NCBI RefSeq assembly: GCF_024700885.2 | Contig: NZ_CP117016.1 | Length of the DNA: 64,000 bases | Reading direction: 5' to 3' (one strand) | Source: Escherichia coli | GTDB lineage: Bacteria > Pseudomonadota > Gammaproteobacteria > Enterobacterales > Enterobacteriaceae | Shown here: one piece after another, positions 10,361 through 52,010 of the stretch | How the letters are laid out: every line of letters begins with the position of its first letter | Position numbering within the stretch: the first letter of the stretch is position 1 | Position numbers and translations under genes: made by a program | The notes under the pieces: generated by a model | What the model saw: only the letters and a program-made list of their open reading frames with translations | Told to the model about the DNA's origin: nothing | The model's database searches: none

Positions 10361-10375
10361 GCTTTTTTATACTAA
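10361..10375. other. attL: attL core (GCTTTTTTATACTAA), followed by the lambda-like P' arm
   Basis: Core is followed by GTTGGCATTATAAAAAAGCATTGCTTATCAATTTGTTGCAACGAACAGGTCACTATCAGTCAAAATAAAATCATTATTTG, lambda attP P'-arm sequence. Confidence 0.9.
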
Positions 10376-10448: not shown

Positions 10449-11519
10449 TTATTTGATTTCAATTTTGTCCCACTCCCTGCCTCTGTCATCACGATACTGT
10501 GATGCCATGGTGTCCGACTTATGCCCGAGAAGATGTTGAGCAAACTTATCGCTTATCTGCTTCTCATAGAGTCTTGCAGACAAACTGCGCAACTCGTGAA
10601 AGGTTGGCGGATCCCCTTCGAAGGAAAGACCTGATGCTTTTCGTGCGCGCATAAAATACCTTGATACTGTGCCGGATGAAAGCGGTTCACGACGAGTAGA
10701 TGCAATTATGGTTTCTCCGCCAAGAATCTCTTTGCATTTACCAAGTGTTTCCTTCATTGATATCCCGAGAGCATCAACATGCAATGTTGTAGGGATGGCA
10801 ATTTTTACGCCTGTTTTGCTTTGCTCGACATAAAGATATCCATCTACGATATCAGACCACTTCATTTCGCATAAATCACCAACTCGCTGCCCGGTAACAA
10901 CAGCCAGTTCCATTGCAAGTCTGAGCCAACATGGTGATGATTCTGCTGCTTGATAAATTTTCAGGTATTCGTCAGCCGTAAGTCTTGATCTCCTTACCTC
11001 TGATTTTGCTGCGCGAGTGGCAGCGACCGGGTTTGTTGTTATATGGCCTTCAGCTATTGCCTCTCGGAATGCATCGCTCAGTGTTGATCTGATTAACTTG
11101 GCTGACGCCGCCTTGCCCTCGTCTATGTATCCATTGAGCATTGCCGCAATTTCTTTTGTGGTGATGTCTTCAAGTGAAACATCAGGCAGACCCCTCCTTA
11201 TTGCTTTAATTTTGCTCATGTAATTTATGAGTGTCTTCTGCTTGATTCCTCTGCTGGCGAGGATTTTTTCGTAGCGATCAAGCCATGAATGTAACGTAAC
11301 AGAATTATCACTGTTGATTCTCGCTGTCAGAGGCTTGTGTTTGTGTCCTGAAAATAACTCAATATTGGCCTGTATTGCTTCAGTAATTGCTATCCTCCTG
11401 TCTCTGCCTAATCCGAACTCTTTACCCGTCCTTGGGTCCCTGTAGCAGTAATATCCATTGTTTCTTATATAAAGGTTAGGGGGTAAATCCCGGCGCTCAT
11501 GACTTCGCCTTCTTCCCAT
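10449..11519 (-). CDS. int: Lambda-type integrase (tyrosine recombinase)
   Basis: 356-aa ORF MGRRRSHERRDLPPNLYIRNNGYYCYRDPRTGKEF..., recognised as lambda Int; adjacent to attL. Confidence 0.95.
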   Translation of the reverse strand: MGRRRSHERRDLPPNLYIRNNGYYCYRDPRTGKEFGLGRDRRIAITEAIQANIELFSGHKHKPLTARINSDNSVTLHSWLDRYEKILASRGIKQKTLINYMSKIKAIRRGLPDVSLEDITTKEIAAMLNGYIDEGKAASAKLIRSTLSDAFREAIAEGHITTNPVAATRAAKSEVRRSRLTADEYLKIYQAAESSPCWLRLAMELAVVTGQRVGDLCEMKWSDIVDGYLYVEQSKTGVKIAIPTTLHVDALGISMKETLGKCKEILGGETIIASTRREPLSSGTVSRYFMRARKASGLSFEGDPPTFHELRSLSARLYEKQISDKFAQHLLGHKSDTMASQYRDDRGREWDKIEIK

Positions 11520-27235: not shown

Positions 27236-27477
27236 TAACTGAGCCGTAGCCACTGACTATCCTGAATTCATCAGTGATAGTTACGCTGCGGCCTTCTACA
27301 CATGATATTCGTGAAAGCGGGTGGCAGGAGGTTGCGCTAACAACCTCATGCCGTTTTGCCCGTGCATATCGGTCACGAACAAATCTGATTACTAAACACA
27401 GTAGCCTGGATTTGTTCTATCAGTAATCGACCTTATTCCTAATTAAATAGAGCAAATCCCCTTATTGGGGGTAAGAC

Positions 27478-27801
27478 ATGAAGATGCCAGAAAAACATGA
27501 CCTGTTAGCCGCCATTCTCGCGGCAAAGGAACAAGGCATCGGGGCAATCCTTGCGTTTGCAATGGCGTACCTTCGCGGCAGATATAATGGCGGTGCGTTT
27601 ACAAAAACAGTAATCGACGCAACGATGTGCGCCATTATCGCCTGGTTCATTCGTGACCTTCTCGACTTCGCCGGACTAAGTAGCAACCTCGCTTATATAA
27701 CGAGCGTGTTCATCGGCTATATCGGTACTGACTCGATTGGTTCGCTTATCAAACGCTTCGCTGCTAAAAAAGCCGGAGTAGAAGATGGTGGAAATCAATA
27801 A
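27478..27801 (+). CDS. S: Holin S (class I, dual-start)
   Basis: [34 protein letters not shown]..., lambda S. Confidence 0.95.
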
Positions 27802-28261
27802 TCAACGTAAGGCGTTCCTCGATATGCTGGCGTGGTCAGAGGGGACTGATAACGGACGTCAGAAAACCAGAAATCATGGTTATGACGTCATTGTAGGCGG
27901 AGAGCTATTCACTGATTACTCCGATCACCCTCGCAAACTTGTCACGCTAAACCCCAAACTCAAATCAACAGCCGCCGGACGCTACCAGCTTCTTTCCCGT
28001 TGGTGGGATGCCTATCGTAAGCAGCTTGGCCTGAAAGACTTCTCTCCGAAAAGCCAGGACGCTGTGGCACTGCAACAGATTAAAGAGCGTGGCGCTTTAC
28101 CGATGATTGATCGCGGTGATATCCGTCAGGCAATCGACCGTTGCAGCAATATCTGGGCTTCACTGCCGGGGGCTGGTTATGGTCAGTTCGAGCATAAGGC
28201 TGACAGCCTGATTGCAAAATTCAAAGAAGCTGGCGGAACGGTCAGAGAGATTGAGGTATGA
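27785..28261 (+). CDS. R: Endolysin R (lytic transglycosylase)
   Basis: [42 protein letters not shown]..., lambda R. Confidence 0.95.
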
Positions 28262-28725
28262 GCAGAGTAACCGCGATTATCTCCGCTCTGGTTATCTGCA
28301 TCATCGCCTGTCTGTCATGGGCGGTTAATCATTACCGTGATAACGCCATCGCCTACAAAGAACAGCGAGATAAAAAAGTCAGTGAGCTGAAGCAGGCGAC
28401 CGCCACCATTACTGACATGCAGCAGCGCCAGCGTGCTGCTGATGCACTCGATGCTAAATACACGAAGGAGTTAGCTGATGCGAAAGCTGAAAATGATGCT
28501 CTTCGGCGCAAGCTTGATAATGGTGGTCGGGTGTTCGTCAAAGGAAAATGCCCTATGCCATCCTCAGCCGAAACCTCCAGCGCCTCCGGCATGGGCAATG
28601 ATGCCACCGTCGAACTCTCTCCAGTTGCTGGACGAAACGTTCTCGGTATCCGGGACGGAATCATCAGCGACCAAACAGCACTGAGAACGCTTCAGGAATA
28701 CATCAGGACGCAATGCCTTCGATGA
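28258..28725 (+). CDS. Rz: Spanin inner-membrane subunit Rz
   Basis: N-terminal TM segment plus coiled coil; lambda Rz-like. Confidence 0.9.
28478..28684 (+). CDS. Rz1: Spanin outer-membrane lipoprotein Rz1 (embedded in Rz, +1 frame)
   Basis: [21 protein letters not shown]... lipobox followed by a proline-rich segment, nested in Rz. Confidence 0.7.
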
Positions 28726-28899
28726 TAGCGATAATTTTACTCATCATCCTTCACATCTGGCTCTGTAGACAGGGTGGTGATCACTTCTGGAGTGAATCCA
28801 GATTAAACATCTCATTGCTGATGCTTGATATTGAGCATCTTGCGCGCGGTAAGGGGCTGCGTTGAGATAAGAGCCAGTTCATTACAAATACCAGGATTT

Positions 28900-28928
28900 A
28901 GCCTCGCATTCGCGGGGTTTTTTATTCC
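28900..28928 (+). terminator. Putative intrinsic terminator after lysis genes
   Basis: Hairpin CCTCGCATTCGCGGGG followed by TTTTTTATT. Confidence 0.4.
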
Positions 28929-28947
28929 CAACTCCATAGGTAATTTT

Positions 28948-29427
28948 ATGACCCAGCATATTGGCGTAAAACTGATTAACGCCTTTCCGATGACGAGACA
29001 GGCATATAACGATTTTCGTGGCTGGCAGCTTCCTGCCGGAGAAAACGGCGAGGACGAAGGCTATCTGGTTGAATATCTGGATGGCGGAAAACCTAACACC
29101 GATCGCTTTGATGGCTACGTTAGCTGGAGTCCAAAAGAAGTATTCGAAAAGGCTTATCGTCCGGTATCAGGACTAAGTTTCGGCCTTGCCATGGAAGCGT
29201 TAAAACAGGGCAAAAGTTTGCAGCGGGCAGGATGGAATGGGAAAGACCAGTTTGTTTATCTCGTGAAAGGGGAAAAATTAGCGTCTGCGTTGGGTTATGG
29301 CTTTGGCGAATATGTTGGCGAGCCAACTTTCAATGACACGCTTGTATTGAAAAACTCACAGAACCGCCTTGCTACATGGGTTCCATCCATTGGCGACCTG
29401 ATGGCTGAAGACTGGCAAATCATTTAA
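28948..29427 (+). CDS. Hypothetical late-region protein (DUF2829-like?)
   Basis: Track ORF 28825..29427; start moved to ATG at 28948 (MTQHIGVKL...) downstream of the terminator hairpin; C-terminal WNGK...YLV...TW.PS..DLMAEDW motif. Confidence 0.5.
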   Translation: MTQHIGVKLINAFPMTRQAYNDFRGWQLPAGENGEDEGYLVEYLDGGKPNTDRFDGYVSWSPKEVFEKAYRPVSGLSFGLAMEALKQGKSLQRAGWNGKDQFVYLVKGEKLASALGYGFGEYVGEPTFNDTLVLKNSQNRLATWVPSIGDLMAEDWQII

Positions 29428-42371: not shown

Positions 42372-44479
42372 GTTTACCCGAAGGATTTGTTCTCGATAAT
42401 CAGCCTGATAACTCACAGCTTCCTGATGGTTTTGTGCTTGATTCCCAACCAGAGCAGCAGCAATCACCTTTGGTTTCACCAGAGGAAAATTCCAGACAGG
42501 AAAATGTTGTTAATAATGCTAACGGCTTCGACCGTTTTATGTATGGCGTTCTCAGTGGATTGATGGATGTTGGTAAAGGTGTTGGTCTATTTCAGGATAT
42601 GACACCAGAAGAGCAAGCCGCAATTCAGTCTCTACAGCAGAAGTTAGCGGCAAAACCATCAACCGCACAAGATGTTGGTGAGTTCGTTGGACAAGCAGCA
42701 CCATTTGTTAGTGGTGGTGGGATTATTTCTCAGGTTCCGAAAGGGGCGGCAAGGCTGGCTGCCGCCGCAGGGCTTGGTGCTGGAGAAGGGGCTATTGTAG
42801 CCAATGGAACAAATAGCGATGTTGCTTCTGGAGCTGCTATTGGCGCTGTGGCTGGCCCTGTAGCAGAGATTGTTGGTCCAGCGCTTGGGAAGATTGCAGG
42901 AAAAATTAAAAATAGTGCCGGAGATATTTATCGCTCATCCGTAGGGATGGGTAGTAAATCATCTAAAGCAACGTTAAAGAAAGCTGCTGGCGCAATGGAC
43001 AATAAATTTATCGGCGGGCAACGAGCTATTCAAGATTTCGCCGATGAAGTTAATCCTGATTTTAACGCGATAAATGCTATTCGTGAGCTAGAACTGGAAA
43101 ATTATGCCACTCCAGGCATGATCTCTAATAATCCTGCTGTCAGGGCTCTTGATAATGCAGTGGCAAGTCTCCCTGGAACAGAGATTAGTGAGGCGCATAA
43201 GCGTTTTATTACTGAATTAGGAAGAAAAGCTGATGAAATGATAACTTCATTTGGGGGAAGCCTTGATAAGCAACTGGTTTCTGACAGGCTTGCAGATAAT
43301 TTTGATAAAACCATTTCATCATTACAAAATCAGTCAGATAACATCTACAACAAAATTGCCGAAAAGGTTCCTGTAAGAGACCGGATTGAGGCAACTAATA
43401 CATTGAATTTTTTAGAGGATTTTGCTGATGATATAGGTGGAATTGATGAATTATCTCCAATAATGAAGCGGACATTGAACCGACTTGATCCAAACACCTT
43501 GCCAACGTATGGGCGTTTAGATCTCGCTAGAAAGCAGGTTGGACAAGCTATTGGCAAAGGCTCTGGTCCATTCAAGGATGAAGAAACAGGTGTTCTTAAA
43601 AAGTTATATGCGGCTATAACAGATGACCAACAGGCTGTCGCAGAAAAATATGGCGCAGGGGAGTTATGGACGCTTGGTAAGGAGTTGGTAAAAACACGAA
43701 AATCCATTGAAGATGATGCCGTAACCGTTTTGGGTAGAAAACTTCAGCAATCAGCAATTCCAAAAGTTGAAAGTGCCGTTGTTAATATGGCAAAAGGAAA
43801 CGGTGGTGACTTTAGGCAATTAATGAAGTCAATTCCAAAGGATATGCGGCAGGAAGTTGCGCTCACCTCAATGAATAAAGCATTTACCAGCTATGCTAAA
43901 TCACCAGGTCAGCAATTAGGGGTTGATGGATTTGTAAAATGGTATAACGGAATGTCACGCAATGGGGCCAATATGAAGGCTCTCCGTGATGCTATTGGCA
44001 CAGATGCATCAAAGCGCCTTGATACGATTTATCAAGCAGCCAAAGCTATGAATAGACTCAATACTGGTAAGCAGTATGCTAGCAGCCTTGTGGATCAGCA
44101 AGTTAATAACTTCCTGAAAGAAAAGGGTAGTCTCGCAAAAATTTATGGAATAGCCTCAAAAGCTGCTGCGGCGGAAGGTATTACAAGCTTATCTGGTCTT
44201 CCTGGTGTAGGTGCAACAGGGGTGATAACGTCAGCATTGATGTCAGGGAAAACAAGCAGGATAAAGGCTGCTGATGCTCTACTGTCTTCTCCTGAGTTTA
44301 AATCAATGCTATTTCGCCTGCAAAACGCACCAGTAGACAGAGCAGAAGTGAGACGCGTAATAGAAAGGAAACTGATGCAATCTGGGGCATTTAAGAGATG
44401 GGAGAAAACCTTATCAACAGATGAAGCAAAAACCATTGCCCGCACGGGGATTATTACATGGCTCGCTAGTGACAGTTAG
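42356..44479 (+). CDS. Ejection protein (P22 gp16-like), enlarged
   Basis: 707-aa ORF at the end of the rightward morphogenesis operon. Confidence 0.6.
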
Positions 44480-44766
44480 TCAACTTTGGTTATTTTGCCT
44501 TCTTTTTCTTGATGAACTTTGCATCCATCATCTTTTGATAGCCAAACTAAAAACTTTAAAACCTTAAACACAAGTACGGCTACTGCAATGAAAGCACCAA
44601 TTGCAATTATTGCTAGCGAAATTATTTGCATTGGTGCTTTTAATGCAGGGAAAATAGTGTAAATGATCGCGAAAACAGTAATTATGAGGAACCATCGCTT
44701 CACACCAACCTCCTTAGTTTTGAGCAGGATACCAGATGGTTTGGAGTGAGATAAAGGTTTGTCCAC
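44476..44766 (-). CDS. Small membrane protein (96 aa, two predicted TM helices)
   Basis: Hydrophobic segments WFLIITVFAIIYTIF and IISLAIIAIGAFIAVAVLVF; AT-rich; distal gene of the leftward cassette. Confidence 0.5.
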   Translation of the reverse strand: MDKPLSHSKPSGILLKTKEVGVKRWFLIITVFAIIYTIFPALKAPMQIISLAIIAIGAFIAVAVLVFKVLKFLVWLSKDDGCKVHQEKEGKITKVD

Positions 44767-44830
44767 TTTTGGCTATAGCTTTATGTATCCGTGACGGATG
44801 TAATTATCACGGATGCATAAAAATTATATT

Positions 44831-45379
44831 TTAGTGTAATCTCTGATCGTCTGAATCGTGTAAGAACTCCATGAGACTTTGAACCGGAATTGGTTCTATT
44901 GATGATAATGTGAACACAGGAATATTGAGACTTTTGCAACGCTCAAACACTCCCTTATCATGAGTCCATACCTCGTCAGCATTAATTGCTCTTGCAATTG
45001 CTATTATTTGTCTGTCAAACTTAATTTTGTTTGCTGTACCTTCTGTGCTAATTTTCCTTAATTCTTTTAATGTTGGTATCGATGCGCATTCAATAGCAGC
45101 CAACTCATCAAATGATACAGTTTCGAAGCACGATAACGATTTGATAACATTCAGTTTTTCTTGTTGGTAATCTTTATGGATTCCAACTAAAAACTCCGCC
45201 AATACAGGAGTTGGAACGATGATTGTCCCGTTCTTGTTATCTATTCGATCAACAAGAGCTTCTGCTCTTCTTTTGGCATCTGGAATCTCAGAACCAAGTA
45301 TAGGGTCAGATAATCTATAATCGTGTTCTATATCTGATAGTAGGTATACCAGAATATTGGTATCTAAAATTACTCGCAA
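44831..45379 (-). CDS. PIN-domain nuclease-like protein
   Basis: 182-aa ORF MRVILDTNILVYLL... with acidic residues spaced as in PIN domains (D6, E~62, D~122, WTHDKG); start overlaps the upstream gene. Confidence 0.7.
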   Translation of the reverse strand: MRVILDTNILVYLLSDIEHDYRLSDPILGSEIPDAKRRAEALVDRIDNKNGTIIVPTPVLAEFLVGIHKDYQQEKLNVIKSLSCFETVSFDELAAIECASIPTLKELRKISTEGTANKIKFDRQIIAIARAINADEVWTHDKGVFERCKSLNIPVFTLSSIEPIPVQSLMEFLHDSDDQRLH

Positions 45380-46089
45380 TTTATCTTCCTCAGAGTCCTA
45401 AGGATTGAATCAACATCGCGTTCCTCGGACCACTGATCTCCAGGAACTTGCTTGATAGCATTAATAGCATCCTTGAGTGATGATTTTTTGAGCAATACAA
45501 ATGAAGTTATTTTTAGTTTCTTTAGCTCCCATTTGTTGTTCTTTTTTTCCCAGCACCCATCTCCTTTAACCCTAATATATTTGAATAGATGGGACCCAAG
45601 AGCTGCCGCCAAATCAGGGGTTGCCTCGCACTTGAATGTTTCACCGTTGGCTCCCTCAATACGCACAGGTATTGAGTTGTCTTTTCCGCCAACACTGTAT
45701 AGCCTTCCTTGAACTTCTGACGTTTTTGTTATGAGTAAAGGGATTGGCTCCTTTTTTACTCGCGGGAATGCGATAATGGTTGAGTGGTTTCGTCCGAGTA
45801 GTTTCGCTGAAAAACCATCATGCTCCAGTAAATTAACAATTTTTTGATACGCGGGTGATTTCTCTTTGGCTGAGAGAGAGGCCCTTGCTATGACAGCGTT
45901 ATAACAAATATCATTATCGACCCATGCATTTAAGTCAGCCGATCCTTCACTTACACAGTCGAAGTGAACAGAATCTGCAGAACCGTATAGATCTACGAGA
46001 GCAGACATATACTTGACCAACTTAGCCATTGACAGCTGGCCAGGGGTGGTTCCGTCAAGTTTTAATGTGAGTCCATTGCTTTTTTTCAT
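45370..46089 (-). CDS. Hypothetical protein (239 aa), partner of the PIN-domain gene
   Basis: ORF directly downstream of mnt on the same strand, overlapping the PIN gene by 10 nt; no recognised domain. Confidence 0.6.
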   Translation of the reverse strand: MKKSNGLTLKLDGTTPGQLSMAKLVKYMSALVDLYGSADSVHFDCVSEGSADLNAWVDNDICYNAVIARASLSAKEKSPAYQKIVNLLEHDGFSAKLLGRNHSTIIAFPRVKKEPIPLLITKTSEVQGRLYSVGGKDNSIPVRIEGANGETFKCEATPDLAAALGSHLFKYIRVKGDGCWEKKNNKWELKKLKITSFVLLKKSSLKDAINAIKQVPGDQWSEERDVDSILRTLRKINCE

Positions 46090-46138: not shown

Positions 46139-46393
46139 CTATAACTTACTTTTGCTATAAATATTTTTCAGCGTTTCAAAGACCATCTTCTTAACAACGT
46201 CAGATTGCTCATCCGCGACTCGCTCAGCTTCGTCTCGATGGCCTACAATTGATGATGGCTTTGAGAGAGCATCCTGAACGATTTGTAATAACTCAGAGTT
46301 CATTGACCTTCCGTTAGCCTCTGCTCTTAATTTCAATTTTTCTCTTACTTCCAAAGGCATACGGAAGTTAAAGTGCGGATCGTCTCTAGCCAT
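46139..46393 (-). CDS. mnt: Mnt repressor (P22 immI)
   Basis: MARDDPHFNFRMPLEVREKLKLRAEANGRSMNSELLQIVQDALSKP..., ribbon-helix-helix; matches P22 Mnt. Confidence 0.9.
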   Translation of the reverse strand: MARDDPHFNFRMPLEVREKLKLRAEANGRSMNSELLQIVQDALSKPSSIVGHRDEAERVADEQSDVVKKMVFETLKNIYSKSKL

Positions 46394-46420
46394 GCCATCA
46401 CCCCAAGTTAGTGTATTGAC

Positions 46421-46468
46421 ATGATAGAAGCACTCTACTATATTCTCAATAGGTCCACCGTGGACCTA
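46421..46468. promoter_or_regulatory. Oarc and Omnt operators with divergent Pant/Pmnt promoters
   Basis: ATGATAGAAGCACTCTACTAT (46421..46441) and near-palindrome TAGGTCCACCGTGGACCTA (46450..46468), matching P22 immI operators. Confidence 0.75.
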
Positions 46469-46483
46469 TATTGTGAGGTAAAT

Positions 46484-46642
46484 ATGAAAGGAATGAGCAA
46501 AATGCCGCAGTTCAATTTGCGGTGGCCTAAAGAAGTATTGGATTTGGTGCGCAAGGTAGCTGAAGAGAACGGGCGATCTGTTAACTCTGAGATTTATAAG
46601 CGAGTGATGGACAGCCTGAAGAGAGAGGGGATAACGGTATGA
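46484..46642 (+). CDS. arc: Arc repressor (P22 immI)
   Basis: MKGMSKMPQFNLRWPKEVLDLVRKVAEENGRSVNSEIYKRVMDSLKREG..., matches P22 Arc. Confidence 0.9.
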   Translation: MKGMSKMPQFNLRWPKEVLDLVRKVAEENGRSVNSEIYKRVMDSLKREGITV

Positions 46643-46860
46643 AGTTTATTGAGGTTGATGAGATTGGCTATGAGAATGCACTTGGTAGAGGTAAATCTTT
46701 AGTTAACGTTAATGGCATTGAGTCGATAAGGAGCGGTGAATTTACGGAGATCAGAATGATGTCAGGTGGAATCATTCCTTGCCGTGATTCAGTAGAGTCA
46801 ATCAAAGCAAGAATGAGTGGTCAGTGGCTTTATAACTACAGTGACTTACAAAAACAGTGA
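46639..46860 (+). CDS. Hypothetical protein (73 aa) between arc and ant
   Basis: ORF with overlapping start/stop to arc and to the ant upstream frame. Confidence 0.45.
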
Positions 46861-46922
46861 AGCCCCAACTGCGGGAACAGTCAGGGCTTCGGGTGTCAGT
46901 AAATCCGTGGAGAAAAACCAAC

Positions 46923-47825
46923 ATGAATAGTATAGCAATTTTAGAAGCAGTGAACACCTCTTACGTGCCTTTCAATGGTCAGCAAATTATCACCGCCATG
47001 GCTGCCGGAGTTGCATATGTTGCGATGAAGCCAATCGTTGAAAACCTTGGAATGAGCTGGTCAACGCAGCAAACAAAACTCATGAAGCAGATTAGCAAAT
47101 TCAACTGTGTTCATATGAACATGGTTGCCGCTGATGGGAAGCTTCGTAAGCTACTCTGCCTTCCTTTGAAGAAGTTAAATGGATGGCTGTTCAGCATCAA
47201 CCCTGAGAAAGTTCGTGCTGACATCCGCGATAAACTGATTCAGTACCAGGAAGAATGCTTTACTGTGCTGCATGACTACTGGACAAAGGGAAAGGCAGAA
47301 AATGCACGTAAGAAAACATCTGTTGATGACAGGACTCCGCTTCGTGATGCTGTAAATATGCTGGTCAGCAAAAAGCATCTAATGTACCCAGAAGCTTATG
47401 CAATGATTCATCAGCGTTTCAATGTGGAAAGTATTGAAGAGCTTGATGCATCTCAGATACCGCAAGCCGTAGAGTACATCCACAGGGTAGTACTTGAAGG
47501 CGAGTTAATCGGCAAACAAGAGAAGAAAGCAAACGAGCTTTCTGCAAAAGAAGCAAACAGCCTTGTATGGTTATGGGATTATGCCAACCGCTCACAGGCA
47601 TTATTCCGCGAACTGTATCTGGCGCTAAAACAAATTCAATCGAACTATTCCGGCAGATGCTACGACTACGGTCATGAATTCTCGTATGTTATCGGAATGG
47701 CGAGAGACGTTTTAATAAACCACACACGAGATGTTGATATTAATGAGCCAGACGGACCAACGAATCTTTCCGCATGGATGAGACTTAAGAATAAAGAATT
47801 ACCTCCTTCAGTACATAACTACTGA
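46923..47825 (+). CDS. ant: Antirepressor Ant (P22 immI)
   Basis: Internal start [47 protein letters not shown]..., matches P22 Ant (300 aa). Confidence 0.85.
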
Positions 47826-47844
47826 CAGATAACCAACGCAACGA

Positions 47845-47872
47845 CCTAGCTTCGGCTGGGTTTTTTTATGCC
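47845..47872 (+). terminator. Putative intrinsic terminator after ant
   Basis: Hairpin CCTAGCTTCGGCTGGG followed by TTTTTTTAT. Confidence 0.4.
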
Positions 47873-48209
47873 CAAAATTCACCGTAGCCATGCTGCGGCG
47901 ATTCCTTGTATTTGGAGCAAATTAAATGACAGATATTATAAATAGGAATTGTTATTTAATAATGTTTGAAAATAAAAATCATGGACGATAGGAATAAAGG
48001 TATTACTTGTTTTTATTTTTGTAAGTGACGCATTAAGCGCATAAATAATATGCCTGTTGATCAAGATTCTTGAGTATTGTAAAATAATCGTTTTGTTCAT
48101 GTTGCATGGTTTTTAAATGAATAGAAGGTTATTTTTCAAAACAATTGCATCGTTGTCTGCAGTCATTCCGTTTTCTTCAATATCTAAATCTTCAAACAGG
48201 ATGACTAAT

Positions 48210-50795
48210 ATGCCTGATATAACCCCAAATGTTGTGATAGGTATGCCATCGCAACTCTTCACAATGGCTAGCTCTTTTAAAACCGTAGCAAATGGAAAAA
48301 TTTATATCGGTAAGATTGACACAGATCCGGTAAATCCAGAAAACCAGATTCCAGTATATCTGGAACGAGAAGATGGTACTTATGTTCAGGTGCCACAGCC
48401 AATCGTTATCAATGCTGCTGGATACCCGGTATACAACGGACAGATTTCCAAATTCGTTACCGTGCAAGGCCATTCTATGGCTGTTTACGATGCATATGGT
48501 ACGCAGCAGTTCTATTTTCCGAATGTGCTTAAGTACGATCCTGACCAATTAAGACAACAATTAGAAGACCCGGAAGGTGCTAAAAAATATCATGAATTGC
48601 AGATGTCTCGGTGGCGTGATGACGCTGACCCTCGCGGATGGGGAGCAAAAGGTGATGGCATCACCGATGACACATTATCTTTTCAAGAGTTAGAAAAACA
48701 AATCACAGGAAGGATTGTTGATCTAAGGGGTAATACATATATAACAGATCAAGTTTTTGATGGAAATAAGTATATAAATGGCTATTTTCGCACAGAGAAT
48801 CGATTACTGCCAGATGCTGATTTTACTGAAAAAAGAATACAAACTATAAAAAAGGGGATGTATACAGGTTTCAGACCTTCTACTCCTAATCATGTTAAGT
48901 CAGGGTTGCGACTGGCAACAATTAAAAATACTGTCATACAGGGTGCTGTTCTTGATTATTATGACAGTGTTCTTTATTGCTTGGTAAATGTGAGTGGCAG
49001 CGTTAGTTCTGGTGACGAAGTTAATAAAGTTGTTGCTTATAATTGGTTTGGGAATGAAGAGTTAACTCCTCTTTGGGAGACTAAAGGTAGTAGAGAATTA
49101 GGACATCAATGTCTTGGTTTAACCATAGGGCGCGTTGGTTTTCGTAACACAAGAGGCCAGTTACAGATATGGGGGTTAGCTGGCACAGCTAAAGGAGAGG
49201 ATCGCGCAAAGTATATCACCAGATTCACCCCTACTGATGGTGGTGAAATTGAACCAGAGTTTTTTCTCATATGGGAAGATGGTTACGAGAATCAGGTAAA
49301 TGTTTTATGCACCGACCCTATGAGTCGATGGCTGATTACTACAGCAAAACGTTATGTTGGCCCTGGTGAGAGCCCATCAACACCAGATCAAATTCGCTAT
49401 TATGTAAAAGTATTTGATACCAGCAAATTTATTAACCCGCAGGCGTACAATTACGATTATCGTAATGAAGCAACTTTTGAATTTGAAATTGCCGATTTTG
49501 TGAGGGATATGCAAACAGTTGCGTGTGACGGTACTGCTATTTATTTTTGTCAGGCTGGATCTGCATATTCTTCAACCAGAAAATATTTGCATCAGTACAC
49601 ACTTGATGGTGTTTATCTTGGGGTGCAGCAAATACAGGCAGGTGCAGGAAGAGCCTATGAAATAGCAGATCCAAATGATACCGGAACGCCAGATGTTAGC
49701 AATCTTACATATGAACCAGAAGCAATGTTTTTCCGTATGATTGCAGGTGGGTATGACCTTGTAATGGGGAATACAAATGGCATACCAGATGGTGATAGTG
49801 GGCGAGAAACTACATTTTACACATTAATGCCACAACAGGTAATGCATGTAAAAACAACATCAAGAAATCAGCCTGGTATTATCATTGATTCAACCCATGA
49901 TATTGTCACTAACTCTGGTTTGTTAAGCCTTGGTAAAATTATGCCTGGTGGTGAAGTCATAGAGCAGGCAAACCTTGATGACAAAGGATTCACTGTTTCG
50001 AGGGCAACAACACAAGCCGCCCGTTATGATGCAAAGAATACGTTACGGAATGTAACTTTTCATGTTAGTGAAAAAGGTGATACCGGTATTTATGACTTTA
50101 CCAATGCTCAATGGATATTTAAATCTCCCTTATCAACATCTTCATATTCGTATATCGGTCAGTCAGCGGAGGTTAATGGCTATATAAGTGCTAATAAAGA
50201 TAATACGTCATCATGTGGGACATCATCTAAACGGTGGACGCAAGTATATGCAACTAATGGGGCAATAAATACTTCAGACCAGACATTGAAAACAAAGCCA
50301 CTGACAGTAGAGCAACTTTCAGAAATCATGGAGGTGGATCAGGATGCAATTCTTGACGCATGGGGTGACGTAAATATTATCGTTTACCAGTGGTTGTCCG
50401 ATATTAAGGCTAAAGGTTCGGATACTGCTCGTTGGCATTTCGGAGCAATTGCACAGCAGGTAAGAGATGCGTTTCTTGCAAAGGGGATAGATGGAACAAG
50501 ATTTGGCTTGCTATGTCATGATAAATGGGATGATGAGTACCAACCTGTAATGGCACAGCGCAAGGTGTCATTTATAGCTAAATCCCCTGAAGGGGAAGAC
50601 ATCGTTCGCGAATACTTTGAAGAATACGATACTGGTGACACGGAACTGGTTGTACATGCTGGTGAGCGTTGGGGATTGCGTCCAGATGAATGTTTGTGGT
50701 TGGAGGCTGCATTCCAGCGAAGAAGGTGTGAACGCATTGAGTCTCGTTTAACAGAGCTTGAATTGATAATTAAAAAAGCAAAAGAGATAGAGTAG
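48210..50795 (+). CDS. Tailspike: P22-like head-binding N-domain, distinct beta-helix-like receptor-binding body, C-terminal chaperone-like domain
   Basis: Start at ATG 48210 ([50 protein letters not shown]...); [11 protein letters not shown] motif; C-terminal segment ([10 protein letters not shown]...[13 protein letters not shown]...[11 protein letters not shown]) resembles auto-cleaving intramolecular chaperone domains. Confidence 0.85.
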
Positions 50796-51083
50796 ATGGA
50801 TAAAACCCCAATTCATCACGCACTTTGCGCTGTGGTCGCACAGGTACTGGTTGGTCTTTTTACCGGAAACTGGGCTTACGGTGCGATAGCCGGTTGTACG
50901 TTCTTCATTGCTCGTGAACACACCCAGGCAGAATATCGCTGGATTGAAATGTTCGGGCATGGCAAGCGGATTAACATGCCGTGGTGGGGCGGTTTTGATC
51001 CGCGTGCATGGGATGTGGCAAGCCTGATGGATTTTTCTTTCCCAATTATCGGATGCTTATTGGTATGGATTCTTGCATCGTAG
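50796..51083 (+). CDS. Hypothetical small membrane protein (95 aa)
   Basis: ATG overlapping tailspike stop; hydrophobic segments; last gene before the attP P arm. Confidence 0.45.
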   Translation: MDKTPIHHALCAVVAQVLVGLFTGNWAYGAIAGCTFFIAREHTQAEYRWIEMFGHGKRINMPWWGGFDPRAWDVASLMDFSFPIIGCLLVWILAS

Positions 51084-51370
51084 TTAACACAGAGTTACCT
51101 ATGAGACAAAACTAAGGTACACAAAGCTTTGCACTGGATTGCAAGGCTTTGTTCTTCTCTGGAGTGTGACATGTTTTTATGACAAAAAATTAGCGCAAGA
51201 AGACAAAAAATCACCTTGCGCTAATGCTCTGTTACAGGTCACTAATACTATCTAAGTGGTTGATTCATAGTGACTGGATATGTTGTGTTTTGTAGCATTA
51301 TGTAGTCTATTTTTTAGACCAAAGATATTGTAACACATTGATATTAATGGATTTTAATGTTTCACGTTCA

Positions 51371-51385
51371 GCTTTTTTATACTAA
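51371..51385. other. attR: attR core (GCTTTTTTATACTAA), preceded by the lambda-like P arm
   Basis: P-arm sequence (CTGTTACAGGTCACTAATAC...TTGATTCATAGTGACTG...) upstream; bacterial flank CTTGAGCGAAACGGGAAGG downstream. Confidence 0.9.
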
Positions 51386-51475
51386 CTTGAGCGAAACGGG
51401 AAGGTAAAAAGACAAAAAGTTGTTTTTAATACCTTTAAGTGATACCAGATGGCATAGCGCCATCTGGCAGAGTGA

Positions 51476-51952
51476 TTAACTAAACATCGCAGTAATCGAG
51501 GCGCTTGCCAGAGAATGGAAATGGACGTTAAACCCGACCATCGCGCCGCTGGCACCTTCATCGACATCAATACGTTCTACATCCAGCGCGTGAACGGTAA
51601 AAATGTAGCGATGGGTTTCGCCTTTCGGCGGCGCTGCACCATCGTACCCGGTTTTACCAAAGTCGGTACGCGTCTGCAAAACGCCGTCTGGCATTGCTAC
51701 CAGACCAGAGCCAAACCCTTGCGGTAATACGCGGGTATCCGCGGGTAAATTAACAACTACCCAGTGCCACCAGCCGGAGCCAGTTGGCGCATCCGGGTCG
51801 TAGCAGGTGACAACAAAACTTTTCGTTCCCACAGGAACATCATCCCACGCCAGATGCGGTGAAATATTATCGCCATCGTAACCCATGCCGTTAAAGACAT
51901 GACGATGCGGCAACTTATCGCCATCGCGCAGATCATTACTGATGAGTTTCAT
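51476..51952 (-). CDS. ybhB: PEBP/YbhB-family protein
   Basis: 158-aa ORF MKLISNDLRDGDKLPHRHVFNGMGYDGDNISPHLAWDDVP..., PEBP family. Confidence 0.85.
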   Translation of the reverse strand: MKLISNDLRDGDKLPHRHVFNGMGYDGDNISPHLAWDDVPVGTKSFVVTCYDPDAPTGSGWWHWVVVNLPADTRVLPQGFGSGLVAMPDGVLQTRTDFGKTGYDGAAPPKGETHRYIFTVHALDVERIDVDEGASGAMVGFNVHFHSLASASITAMFS

Positions 51953-52010
51953 GAACCCTCCTTTCTAGTTTGCAGAAAGTGTAGCCAGAAACCCTCACGC
52001 TGACTTCCCG

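Follow-up and report, generated by a model that had tools for sequence, protein, structure and literature searches.

A 64,000-nucleotide stretch of the Escherichia coli chromosome (contig NZ_CP117016.1; hereafter the window) carries a P22-like prophage, and directly behind the tailspike gene of this prophage lies a 95-codon open reading frame, ORF95 (positions 50796-51083, plus strand). ORF95 encodes a small membrane protein of PHROG 1443, a catalogued family without a described function, and the gene is ordinarily annotated 'hypothetical protein'. We find that the constant partner of this family is the receptor-binding gene. This systematic coupling across phage morphotypes and host classes was not described in the literature searched: queries on the PHROG identifier and on small membrane proteins beside tail-fibre or receptor-binding genes returned no description of the family, and publications on Tai systems, SieA, V22 gp27 and a CRISPR interference screen of strain LF82 do not concern the ORF95 gene. 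The family likely participates in the biology of adsorption, entry or progeny protection. Tentatively, as the best-fitting reading but as something possible rather than probable, we propose that ORF95 is an accessory inner-membrane factor of the exclusion type, which would protect the infected or lysogenic cell as well as the phage progeny.

ORF95 is a genuine gene at the end of the tailspike transcription unit

ORF95 begins with ATG at 50796-50798 and ends with TAG at 51081-51083. In strain MLI114, whose DNA is 100% identical to the window in the region tested, it is annotated in RefSeq as WP_032202022.1. Its product matches the PHROG 1443 profile over the full length (residues 1-94 against profile positions 1-94 of 97, E 9.7e-55). 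Homologues number 569 in a 90%-identity database, and the family comprises 523 clusters of a 50%-identity library, all of them stand-alone proteins of about 90-110 amino acids. ORF95 is a genuine gene under purifying selection and not a chance open reading frame: across 64 distinct E. coli alleles the ratio of nonsynonymous to synonymous substitution rates (dN/dS) is 0.17 overall and 0.067 in the loop described below. The family is carried by 2067 of 5426 complete E. coli genomes (38%), with a median of two copies and up to eight; carriers include LF82, ST131, NC101 and derivatives of E. coli B. It also occurs in Aeromonas, Halomonas and Comamonas phages and in many uncultured viruses, and has neither a name nor a Pfam family.

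A sequence-only reading of the window had described ORF95 as the gene of a 95-residue hydrophobic membrane protein, starting on the stop codon of the tailspike and with no further gene between it and the P arm of the phage attachment site attP. The grand average of hydropathy (GRAVY +0.44) and a three-helix AlphaFold2 model agree with the first of these claims. The two genes do adjoin directly; they do not overlap, however, since the ATG follows the tailspike TAG (50793-50795) with a 0-nucleotide (nt) spacer. The position before the P arm is borne out as well, because ORF95 is followed by a hairpin (51121-51152) and then by a sib/attP arm 88% identical to that of lambda, which runs to attR.

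At the junction (50782-50795, plus strand) the 3' end of the tailspike gene holds a purine-rich, weak Shine-Dalgarno-like stretch, AAGAGATAGAG, which precedes the TAG and then the ATG, and the abutting layout suggests translational coupling of ORF95 to the tailspike. Neither a spacer nor a terminator nor a convincing promoter separates the two genes. The nearest promoter-like match lies 415 nt upstream of ORF95 (50353-50380), and promoter-like sites are scarcer in the ORF95 region than in shuffled sequence. Downstream, an intrinsic-terminator-like element (51121-51160, plus strand; 13 pairs at 51121-51152, then TCTTCTCT) ends the transcription unit. With no promoter of its own and a terminator at its 3' side, ORF95 is co-transcribed with the tailspike and, as far as this arrangement can tell, should be made whenever the tailspike is made.

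The upstream operon partner, the tailspike gene (48210-50795, plus strand), encodes a P22-type head-binding domain (Pfam Head_binding, E 4.5e-61) and a C-terminal Peptidase_S74 intramolecular chaperone (E 4.5e-10), and also matches PHROG tail-spike families. Its longest open reading frame starts at 48117, and the RefSeq start in the identical MLI114 sequence is 48210. The longer version would begin with MNRRLFF..., a peptide resembling a twin-arginine (Tat) signal, with the head-binding domain starting at residue 32; this N-terminal extension is probably not translated.

The receptor-binding gene is the constant partner of the family

The family member directly follows a tailspike or tail-fibre gene in 83 E. 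coli loci. These partners belong to at least eight PHROG types of tailspike or fibre in E. coli prophages, including at least five P22-type tailspike bodies (PHROGs 1171, 20231, 18162, 14558 and 5662). Side-fibre cassettes of the lambda type run in the order stf, a 93-amino-acid acidic protein, a fibre tip of 234 or 346 amino acids, and the ORF95 homologue. The same neighbourhood recurs in other hosts: the homologue overlaps the stop of a tail-fibre assembly gene in the P2-like tail module of Halomonas phage phiHAP-1, with the sheath gene next, overlaps a Phage_tail_fib gene in an Aeromonas salmonicida prophage and directly follows a 2520-amino-acid J-like fibre in Comamonas, while the 236-kb jumbo phage ACP1 of Aeromonas has an intact member just 5' of a tail-spike-like gene. 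For a more divergent set, we fetched 80 environmental viral contigs through the motif GREH[AS]QAE, taken from a seven-sequence alignment. Here 46 of 79 family genes overlap, or lie within 15 nt of, a large upstream open reading frame (median 499 amino acids), and the top 25 PHROGs matched by these upstream frames are tail or virion families, except for three without description.

Downstream neighbours vary, comprising endolysin/holin cassettes, scaffold-like proteins, Avd of a diversity-generating retroelement, tail proteins, a sheath gene or the att site. Since the downstream genes differ while tail genes persist upstream, the constant partner of the family is the receptor-binding gene, and neither the att site nor the lysis cassette. 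Mosaic junctions support this linkage, as in many prophages at the lambda att site the tail genes are different and identity with the window reaches 89-96% within some 20 nt of the ORF95 start. We rejected the idea that the gene is cargo tied to the lambda att/int module: the copy in prophage Gally of strain LF82 sits at the torS/torT site, and distant members lie inside structural operons. Exclusive linkage to S74-type tailspikes was likewise rejected, because most partner types in the loci examined have other C-termini. The strict position behind unrelated receptor-binding genes makes the family a useful marker for such genes in metagenomic phages; in tail-fibre cassettes, a gene of the ORF95 type is usually carried along unnoticed.

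Coliphage HC6 (L091, OL362274, 1355-4138) has an intact tail fibre gene followed by an unannotated, frameshifted remnant of the family (...RRRANIPWWGGFDWRAWDLPSLLD). The C-terminal S74 module of this fibre closely resembles the C-terminus of the window tailspike, and HC6 also carries recombinase and single-stranded DNA-binding protein genes. Judged from this decayed copy, the family gene is dispensable for the fibre and accessory; the locus is sequence evidence that a fibre tip and the small gene move together and that the latter can decay.

Several further observations concern the surroundings of the homologues. Between the side-fibre gene and the fibre-tip/ORF95 genes, loci L002 (5710-5988) and L020 (4995-5276) encode a very acidic soluble protein of 92-93 amino acids (PHROG 1361, no described function). 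In the LF82 prophages Perceval and Tritos its expression rises in macrophages along with that of the fibre genes, and it is a candidate fibre chaperone. In the lambda-like Jouyvirus phages Lambda_ev203 (L002 6386-9835) and LF82 Perceval, the ORF95 homologue is directly followed, on the opposite strand, by the sitABCD manganese/iron transporter operon, which marks the region past ORF95 as the true cargo slot. A complete lysis cassette follows the family gene, with overlapping stop and start, in a Comamonas testosteroni prophage (L005, 6300-8033) and comprises two small proteins with several transmembrane (TM) segments, a lytic-transglycosylase-like protein and a spanin-like pair. Finally, the classical lambdoid phage 21 (OL657228.1, 21618-21851) and mEp460 (LR595868.1) carry family members annotated 'putative membrane protein', so genetically tractable model phages are available.

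A small membrane protein with a nearly invariant polar loop

Hydropathy along ORF95 is strong in segments 8-24 and 79-95 and moderate in the Gly/Ala-rich segment 25-39. An AlphaFold2 model built on a 22-sequence alignment places helices at residues 4-23, 26-53 and 74-94, with a mean predicted local distance difference test score of 93. On this basis, three parts can be distinguished, all on the plus strand. Codons 4-39 (50805-50912) form a helical hairpin of TM1 (4-23), a turn at G24-N25 and the membrane part of helix 2 (26-39), and include the near-invariant H8. The polar extension of helix 2 and an aromatic loop, REHTQAEYRWIEMFGHGKRINMPWWGGFDPRAW, are defined by the alignments and span codons 40-73 (50913-51014), the region of lowest dN/dS. 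TM3 occupies codons 74-94 (51015-51077) and carries the conserved D79 and P83.

R40 and E41 never vary among 95 family members whose identity to the window protein is 28-60%; H8, Q44, E46, W72 and P83 are conserved at 95-98% (P83 at 97%) and D79 at 87%. The membrane segments vary, and the helix 2 polar extension and the aromatic loop are almost frozen; in ORF95 the latter reads FIAREHTQAEYRW...MPWWGGFD and is nearly invariant. Lysine plus arginine average 5.3 in the loop versus about 0.5 at each terminus, and by the positive-inside rule the predicted topology places the N-terminus and the loop in the cytoplasm and the C-terminus outside. The topology analysis called for by the sequence-only reading yields three helices, and the homology search that it also named yields PHROG 1443. 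Helix geometry in the model would put H8, R40/E41 and D79 at about the same depth, close to the inner leaflet. So many invariant polar residues leave open a small-enzyme or ligand-binding mechanism, which might include an effect on carrier-lipid-linked glycans. No lipobox signal peptide was found, as the N-terminus (MDKTPIHHALC) lacks an n- and h-region and C11 is not conserved (Ile in 47%).

A subfamily of 140-146 amino acids (P0139, P0203 and P0250) carries an acidic, aromatic-rich insertion of about 45 residues within the conserved loop, in the context FGKPF-QTPADYAEWHY…-RANMPWWGGF. The loop can therefore accommodate a soluble insert and might serve as a docking surface. Deriving the topology from longer members (P0166, P0180 and P0241) was tried and rejected, because their N-terminal extensions are contradictory or look like gene-calling artefacts.

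Similarity searches connect the protein to no characterized family. Scans of Pfam and NCBIfam with ORF95 and 95 diverse members gave only sub-threshold noise of the transmembrane type (PhoR N-terminus, DoxA; best E 0.0013), four diverse members matched 0 PADLOC-DB families at E up to 1, and a profile search of the PDB with ORF95 returned no match, nor was a fold relative of ORF95 found.

Homologues differ in regulatory layout and in prophage expression

Three layouts were recognized. The family gene abuts the receptor-binding gene, as in the window; it is separated by a terminator, as in the Tritos type, where a GC-rich terminator lies in a 42-nt spacer (L028, 5965-5979); or it follows a terminator, an AT-rich spacer and a strong Shine-Dalgarno sequence, as in Gally, where the 180-nt spacer behind tailspike and terminator contains a promoter-like site and the Shine-Dalgarno sequence is AAGGAG. 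The homologues in the LF82 prophages Gally, Perceval and Tritos are confirmed family members, 84-88% identical to the window protein; that of Gally is 88% identical and has the same position.

Transcription of these genes can be read from published RNA sequencing of the LF82 lysogen, given for two replicates as log2(fpkm+5), fpkm being fragments per kilobase per million mapped reads (PMC9928086 S1 Table). Sample MB6 denotes bacteria in macrophages at 6 h and BLB the stationary phase in lysogeny broth (LB) (PMC9928086 Fig 7 legend); B1 and B6 are taken here as bacteria-only samples at 1 h and 6 h. The Gally homologue (GALLYPH_17) is at background in LB (3.75 and 4.53), and rises to 6.0-6.1 in B1, 7.0 in B6 and 8.4 and 8.7 in macrophages at 6 h, where it exceeds the tailspike (7.8) and values for the portal, terminase and injection genes do not go beyond about 3-4, with portal and terminase near 3.5 (PMC9928086). 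According to the authors of that study, no phage is produced in macrophages, and Gally in LB is 'devoid of any moron' (PMC9928086). The Perceval homologue (PERCE_24) increases from 3.2 and 3.8 in LB to about 6 in macrophages, and the Tritos homologue (TRITO_22; 2.8 and 3.8 in LB) stays at 3-3.8 elsewhere, although the adjacent fibre gene reaches 7.0 (PMC9928086). The silence of the Tritos copy beside an active fibre gene is as expected from the intervening terminator. The family gene is basically a late-operon gene, and some prophages have been rewired for its conditional expression in the lysogen. The refuting outcome named by the sequence-only reading, lack of expression in lysogens together with lack of conservation in related prophages, does not hold: the gene is conserved, being carried by the 2067 E. 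coli genomes, and the Gally homologue is transcribed in macrophages with the late genes silent.

A possible exclusion factor at the inner membrane

We propose that ORF95 travels as a 3' passenger of tailspike and tail-fibre cassettes, shares a transcript, and probably translational coupling, with the tailspike, the transcript ending at the 51121-51152 hairpin, and inserts into the inner membrane as a three-helix bundle of TM1-TM2 hairpin, conserved loop and TM3. The polar cluster of H8, R40, E41, Q44, E46, W72, D79 and P83 is predicted to lie at the cytoplasmic face of this membrane. There, the protein might keep additional phage genomes from entering productively, or otherwise turn the cell that makes it into a poor sink for progeny, and it would act by way of a conserved membrane component or ligand of the host, not by way of one particular surface receptor. 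Exclusion of this kind could be useful late in infection and, where the gene has acquired its own promoter, in the lysogen. The concept of superinfection exclusion (Sie) proteins that protect progeny has recently been introduced as 'anti-Kronos' (10.1101/2024.03.05.583538), and the role proposed for ORF95 follows a similar logic. Retention in the late operon, together with rewiring in prophages without lysis, fits exclusion or protection better than lysis or assembly. If ORF95 is indeed a general exclusion factor or envelope effector, it bears on the choice of therapy phages against lysogens and on the engineering of tail-fibre cassettes.

Known systems provide partial parallels. Cor of phi80, N15 and T1 and Llp of T5 protect the producing cell or the progeny; they are FhuA-specific outer-membrane lipoproteins that track FhuA-binding phages. 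ORF95 is likewise a small envelope protein encoded beside a receptor-binding gene, its protective role being putative. In contrast to both, it lacks a lipobox, is a polytopic inner-membrane protein, stays near-constant beside unrelated receptor-binding domains and has no sequence similarity to either (Cor is cited in PMC10883804). T4 Imm, P22 SieA and HK97 gp15 are small inner-membrane proteins that act at genome entry, which is the mechanism we would favour for ORF95. Their genes are found at other places in the respective genomes, and those carried by prophages are expressed in lysogens, whereas ORF95 is fused to the late tailspike operon.

Several points weigh against exclusion. ORF95 has no sequence or fold similarity to known exclusion proteins. 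It does not form the autonomous transcription unit typical of a moron, since a terminator is present and a promoter of its own was not found, and all three LF82 homologues are at background in LB lysogens (PMC9928086). Because the family is nearly constant while the neighbouring receptor-binding domains vary widely, ORF95 cannot exclude phages in a receptor-specific manner, unlike Cor and Llp. The many invariant polar residues look more catalytic or ligand-binding than expected of a simple plug, and hardly any of the protein would reach the periplasm in the predicted topology. In addition, the extension of P0166 is lipobox-like and that of P0180 adds a TM segment, so that the two have conflicting implications for topology, perhaps as gene-calling artefacts.

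Among the alternatives, strict lysogenic conversion survives best, and we still regard it as unlikely. ORF95 would in this case work at the inner membrane to modify or inhibit the synthesis of O-antigen, lipopolysaccharide or capsule; possible targets include an undecaprenyl-phosphate-linked intermediate and a conserved pathway enzyme, and the surface seen by tailspikes or fibres would change as a consequence. Conversion draws on the genomic slot, which in the related prophage L052 holds an O-acetyltransferase gene between the tailspike and the family gene, and which, flanked by the tailspike gene on one side and attP-int on the other, is occupied by gtrABC in P22 and by oac in Sf6. The upstream genes mostly encode tailspikes specific for polysaccharides, the invariant H/R/E/Q/E/D residues clustered at the membrane interface look like an active or ligand-binding site, and two of the LF82 homologues show conditional prophage expression. 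However, neither ORF95 nor the 95 diverse members significantly match GtrA (a flippase-like protein with four TM segments), GtrB, GtrC, Oac-type acyltransferases, Wzy or any other family in Pfam or NCBIfam. Moreover, 95 amino acids is very small for an enzyme, the homologues are silent in LB lysogens, the family is kept across hosts with unrelated O-antigens and beside fibres for which binding to polysaccharide is not a requirement, and it is embedded in structural operons, including those of 235-kb Aeromonas jumbo phages, with no att site nearby. The sequence-only reading had seen in ORF95 accessory cargo in a conversion slot, such as a gene for O-antigen modification or exclusion. Its view of the slot accords with the L052 locus and the prophage expression of some homologues, but the family belongs to the receptor-binding cassette and not to att, and an O-antigen role or membership of a known exclusion family finds no similarity in Pfam, NCBIfam or PADLOC and no backing from the fold.

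The polar cluster also allows a bolder proposal, which we think quite unlikely. The ORF95 family could be a hitherto unrecognised, near-universal companion of receptor-binding genes and a minimal enzyme or effector of about 95 amino acids and three TM segments, whose H/RE/Q/E/D site at the inner leaflet binds metal or lipid phosphate and disables a conserved envelope process. The target might be carrier-lipid-dependent glycan export or a generic route of genome entry. Cells that make or carry phage would then stop being sinks, and podo-, sipho-, myo- and jumbo phages would share a morphotype-independent 'anti-Kronos' module.

A function in lysis, as holin, antiholin or regulator of lysis timing at the end of the late operon, is similarly improbable. 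ORF95 resembles class I holins (lambda S, P22 gp13) in size (about 100 amino acids), in the three TM segments and in late expression, and in several distant phages (Comamonas, L094 and L096) the homologue lies between the tail fibre and the lysis cassette: in L094 a holin/antiholin of phrog_126 overlaps its stop, and L096 has an endolysin. Endolysins are among the commonest downstream neighbours. Yet other holin candidates are always present where the homologue adjoins a lysis cassette, Gally has its annotated holin, lysin and Rz genes far from the homologue, and in the window ORF95 lies about 22 kb from an open reading frame cluster (27785-29427) that is a putative lysis cassette by position only. 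The protein itself differs from class I holins in its opposite predicted topology (N-in, C-out), the strongly conserved polar loop and the absence of a charged C-terminal tail, and no holin family of Pfam was matched significantly, one of the 95 members reaching E 0.0036. Homologues are also expressed in lysogens that do not lyse, that of Gally at about 8.5 (log2) in macrophages, where phage production is reported to be blocked (PMC9928086).

Very doubtful, in our view, is a role as a factor for the receptor-binding protein, whether as a membrane-anchored assembly or maturation factor or as a minor virion component of the fibre or spike. Such a role would account for the tight, often overlapping linkage in the position classically held by fibre chaperones, and lambda-like cassettes with a homologue show no Tfa annotation. 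ORF95, unlike the Tfa and gp38 chaperones, is not soluble, and it has no match to the Tfa family in Pfam or PHROG. Its partners are structurally unrelated (beta-helix tailspikes, gp37-like tips, J-like fibres), which makes a common chaperone implausible, and the window tailspike has its own S74 chaperone. In HC6 the fibre gene is intact beside a decayed copy, Tritos fibre genes are transcribed without the homologue, and an integral membrane protein is hard to reconcile with fibre folding in the cytoplasm.

That ORF95 is a hitch-hiker with little function of its own, its DNA serving as the downstream homology flank for recombination of receptor-binding cassettes, would suit the mosaic junctions at its edges, where unrelated tailspikes stand upstream, and its GC content of 49.7% against 40.9% in the tailspike gene, but is highly improbable, as a mere DNA flank does not suffice to explain purifying selection on the amino acids and residues that are invariant among relatives 30-40% identical in hosts from Halomonas to Comamonas.

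The prophage and its other features

The prophage carries P22-type terminase, portal, coat, gp4/gp10/gp26 and ejection-protein genes besides the tailspike, as well as an immI-like region with Arc and antirepressor genes. It is integrated at the lambda attachment site, and the window contains two copies of the 15-bp lambda core GCTTTTTTATACTAA, one at 10361-10375 (attL), adjoining the integrase gene (10449-11519), and one at 51371-51385 (attR), adjoining ybhB and bioA. Beyond ORF95, a lambda-type sib/tI region and attP P arm occupy 51116-51385 and end in the attR core; 51116-51389 is 88% identical to lambda 27471-27742. This segment is the prophage boundary and has no part in ORF95 function. 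An Rfam scan of 50000-52000 gave no match.

Other parts of the prophage are of separate interest. A PIN-domain gene (44831-45379, minus strand) overlaps a hypothetical gene of 239 amino acids (45370-46089), with a 75-amino-acid gene alongside; the group (44476-46089) is placed between the ejection-protein genes and the immI-like region, the slot of sieA in P22. The group may be toxin-antitoxin or defence cargo. The immI-like region itself (46139-47862) holds divergent Arc-family genes (46139-46393, minus strand; 46484-46642, plus strand), a small open reading frame and an antirepressor gene (46923-47825). A strong terminator-like hairpin (47843-47862) lies just 5' of the tailspike gene, and a promoter-like site is present at 48057-48085. 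A lambda-type sib/tI hairpin lies at about 51190-51225, and this P22-like prophage therefore combines an int/att/sib module of lambda with a virion module of the P22 type.

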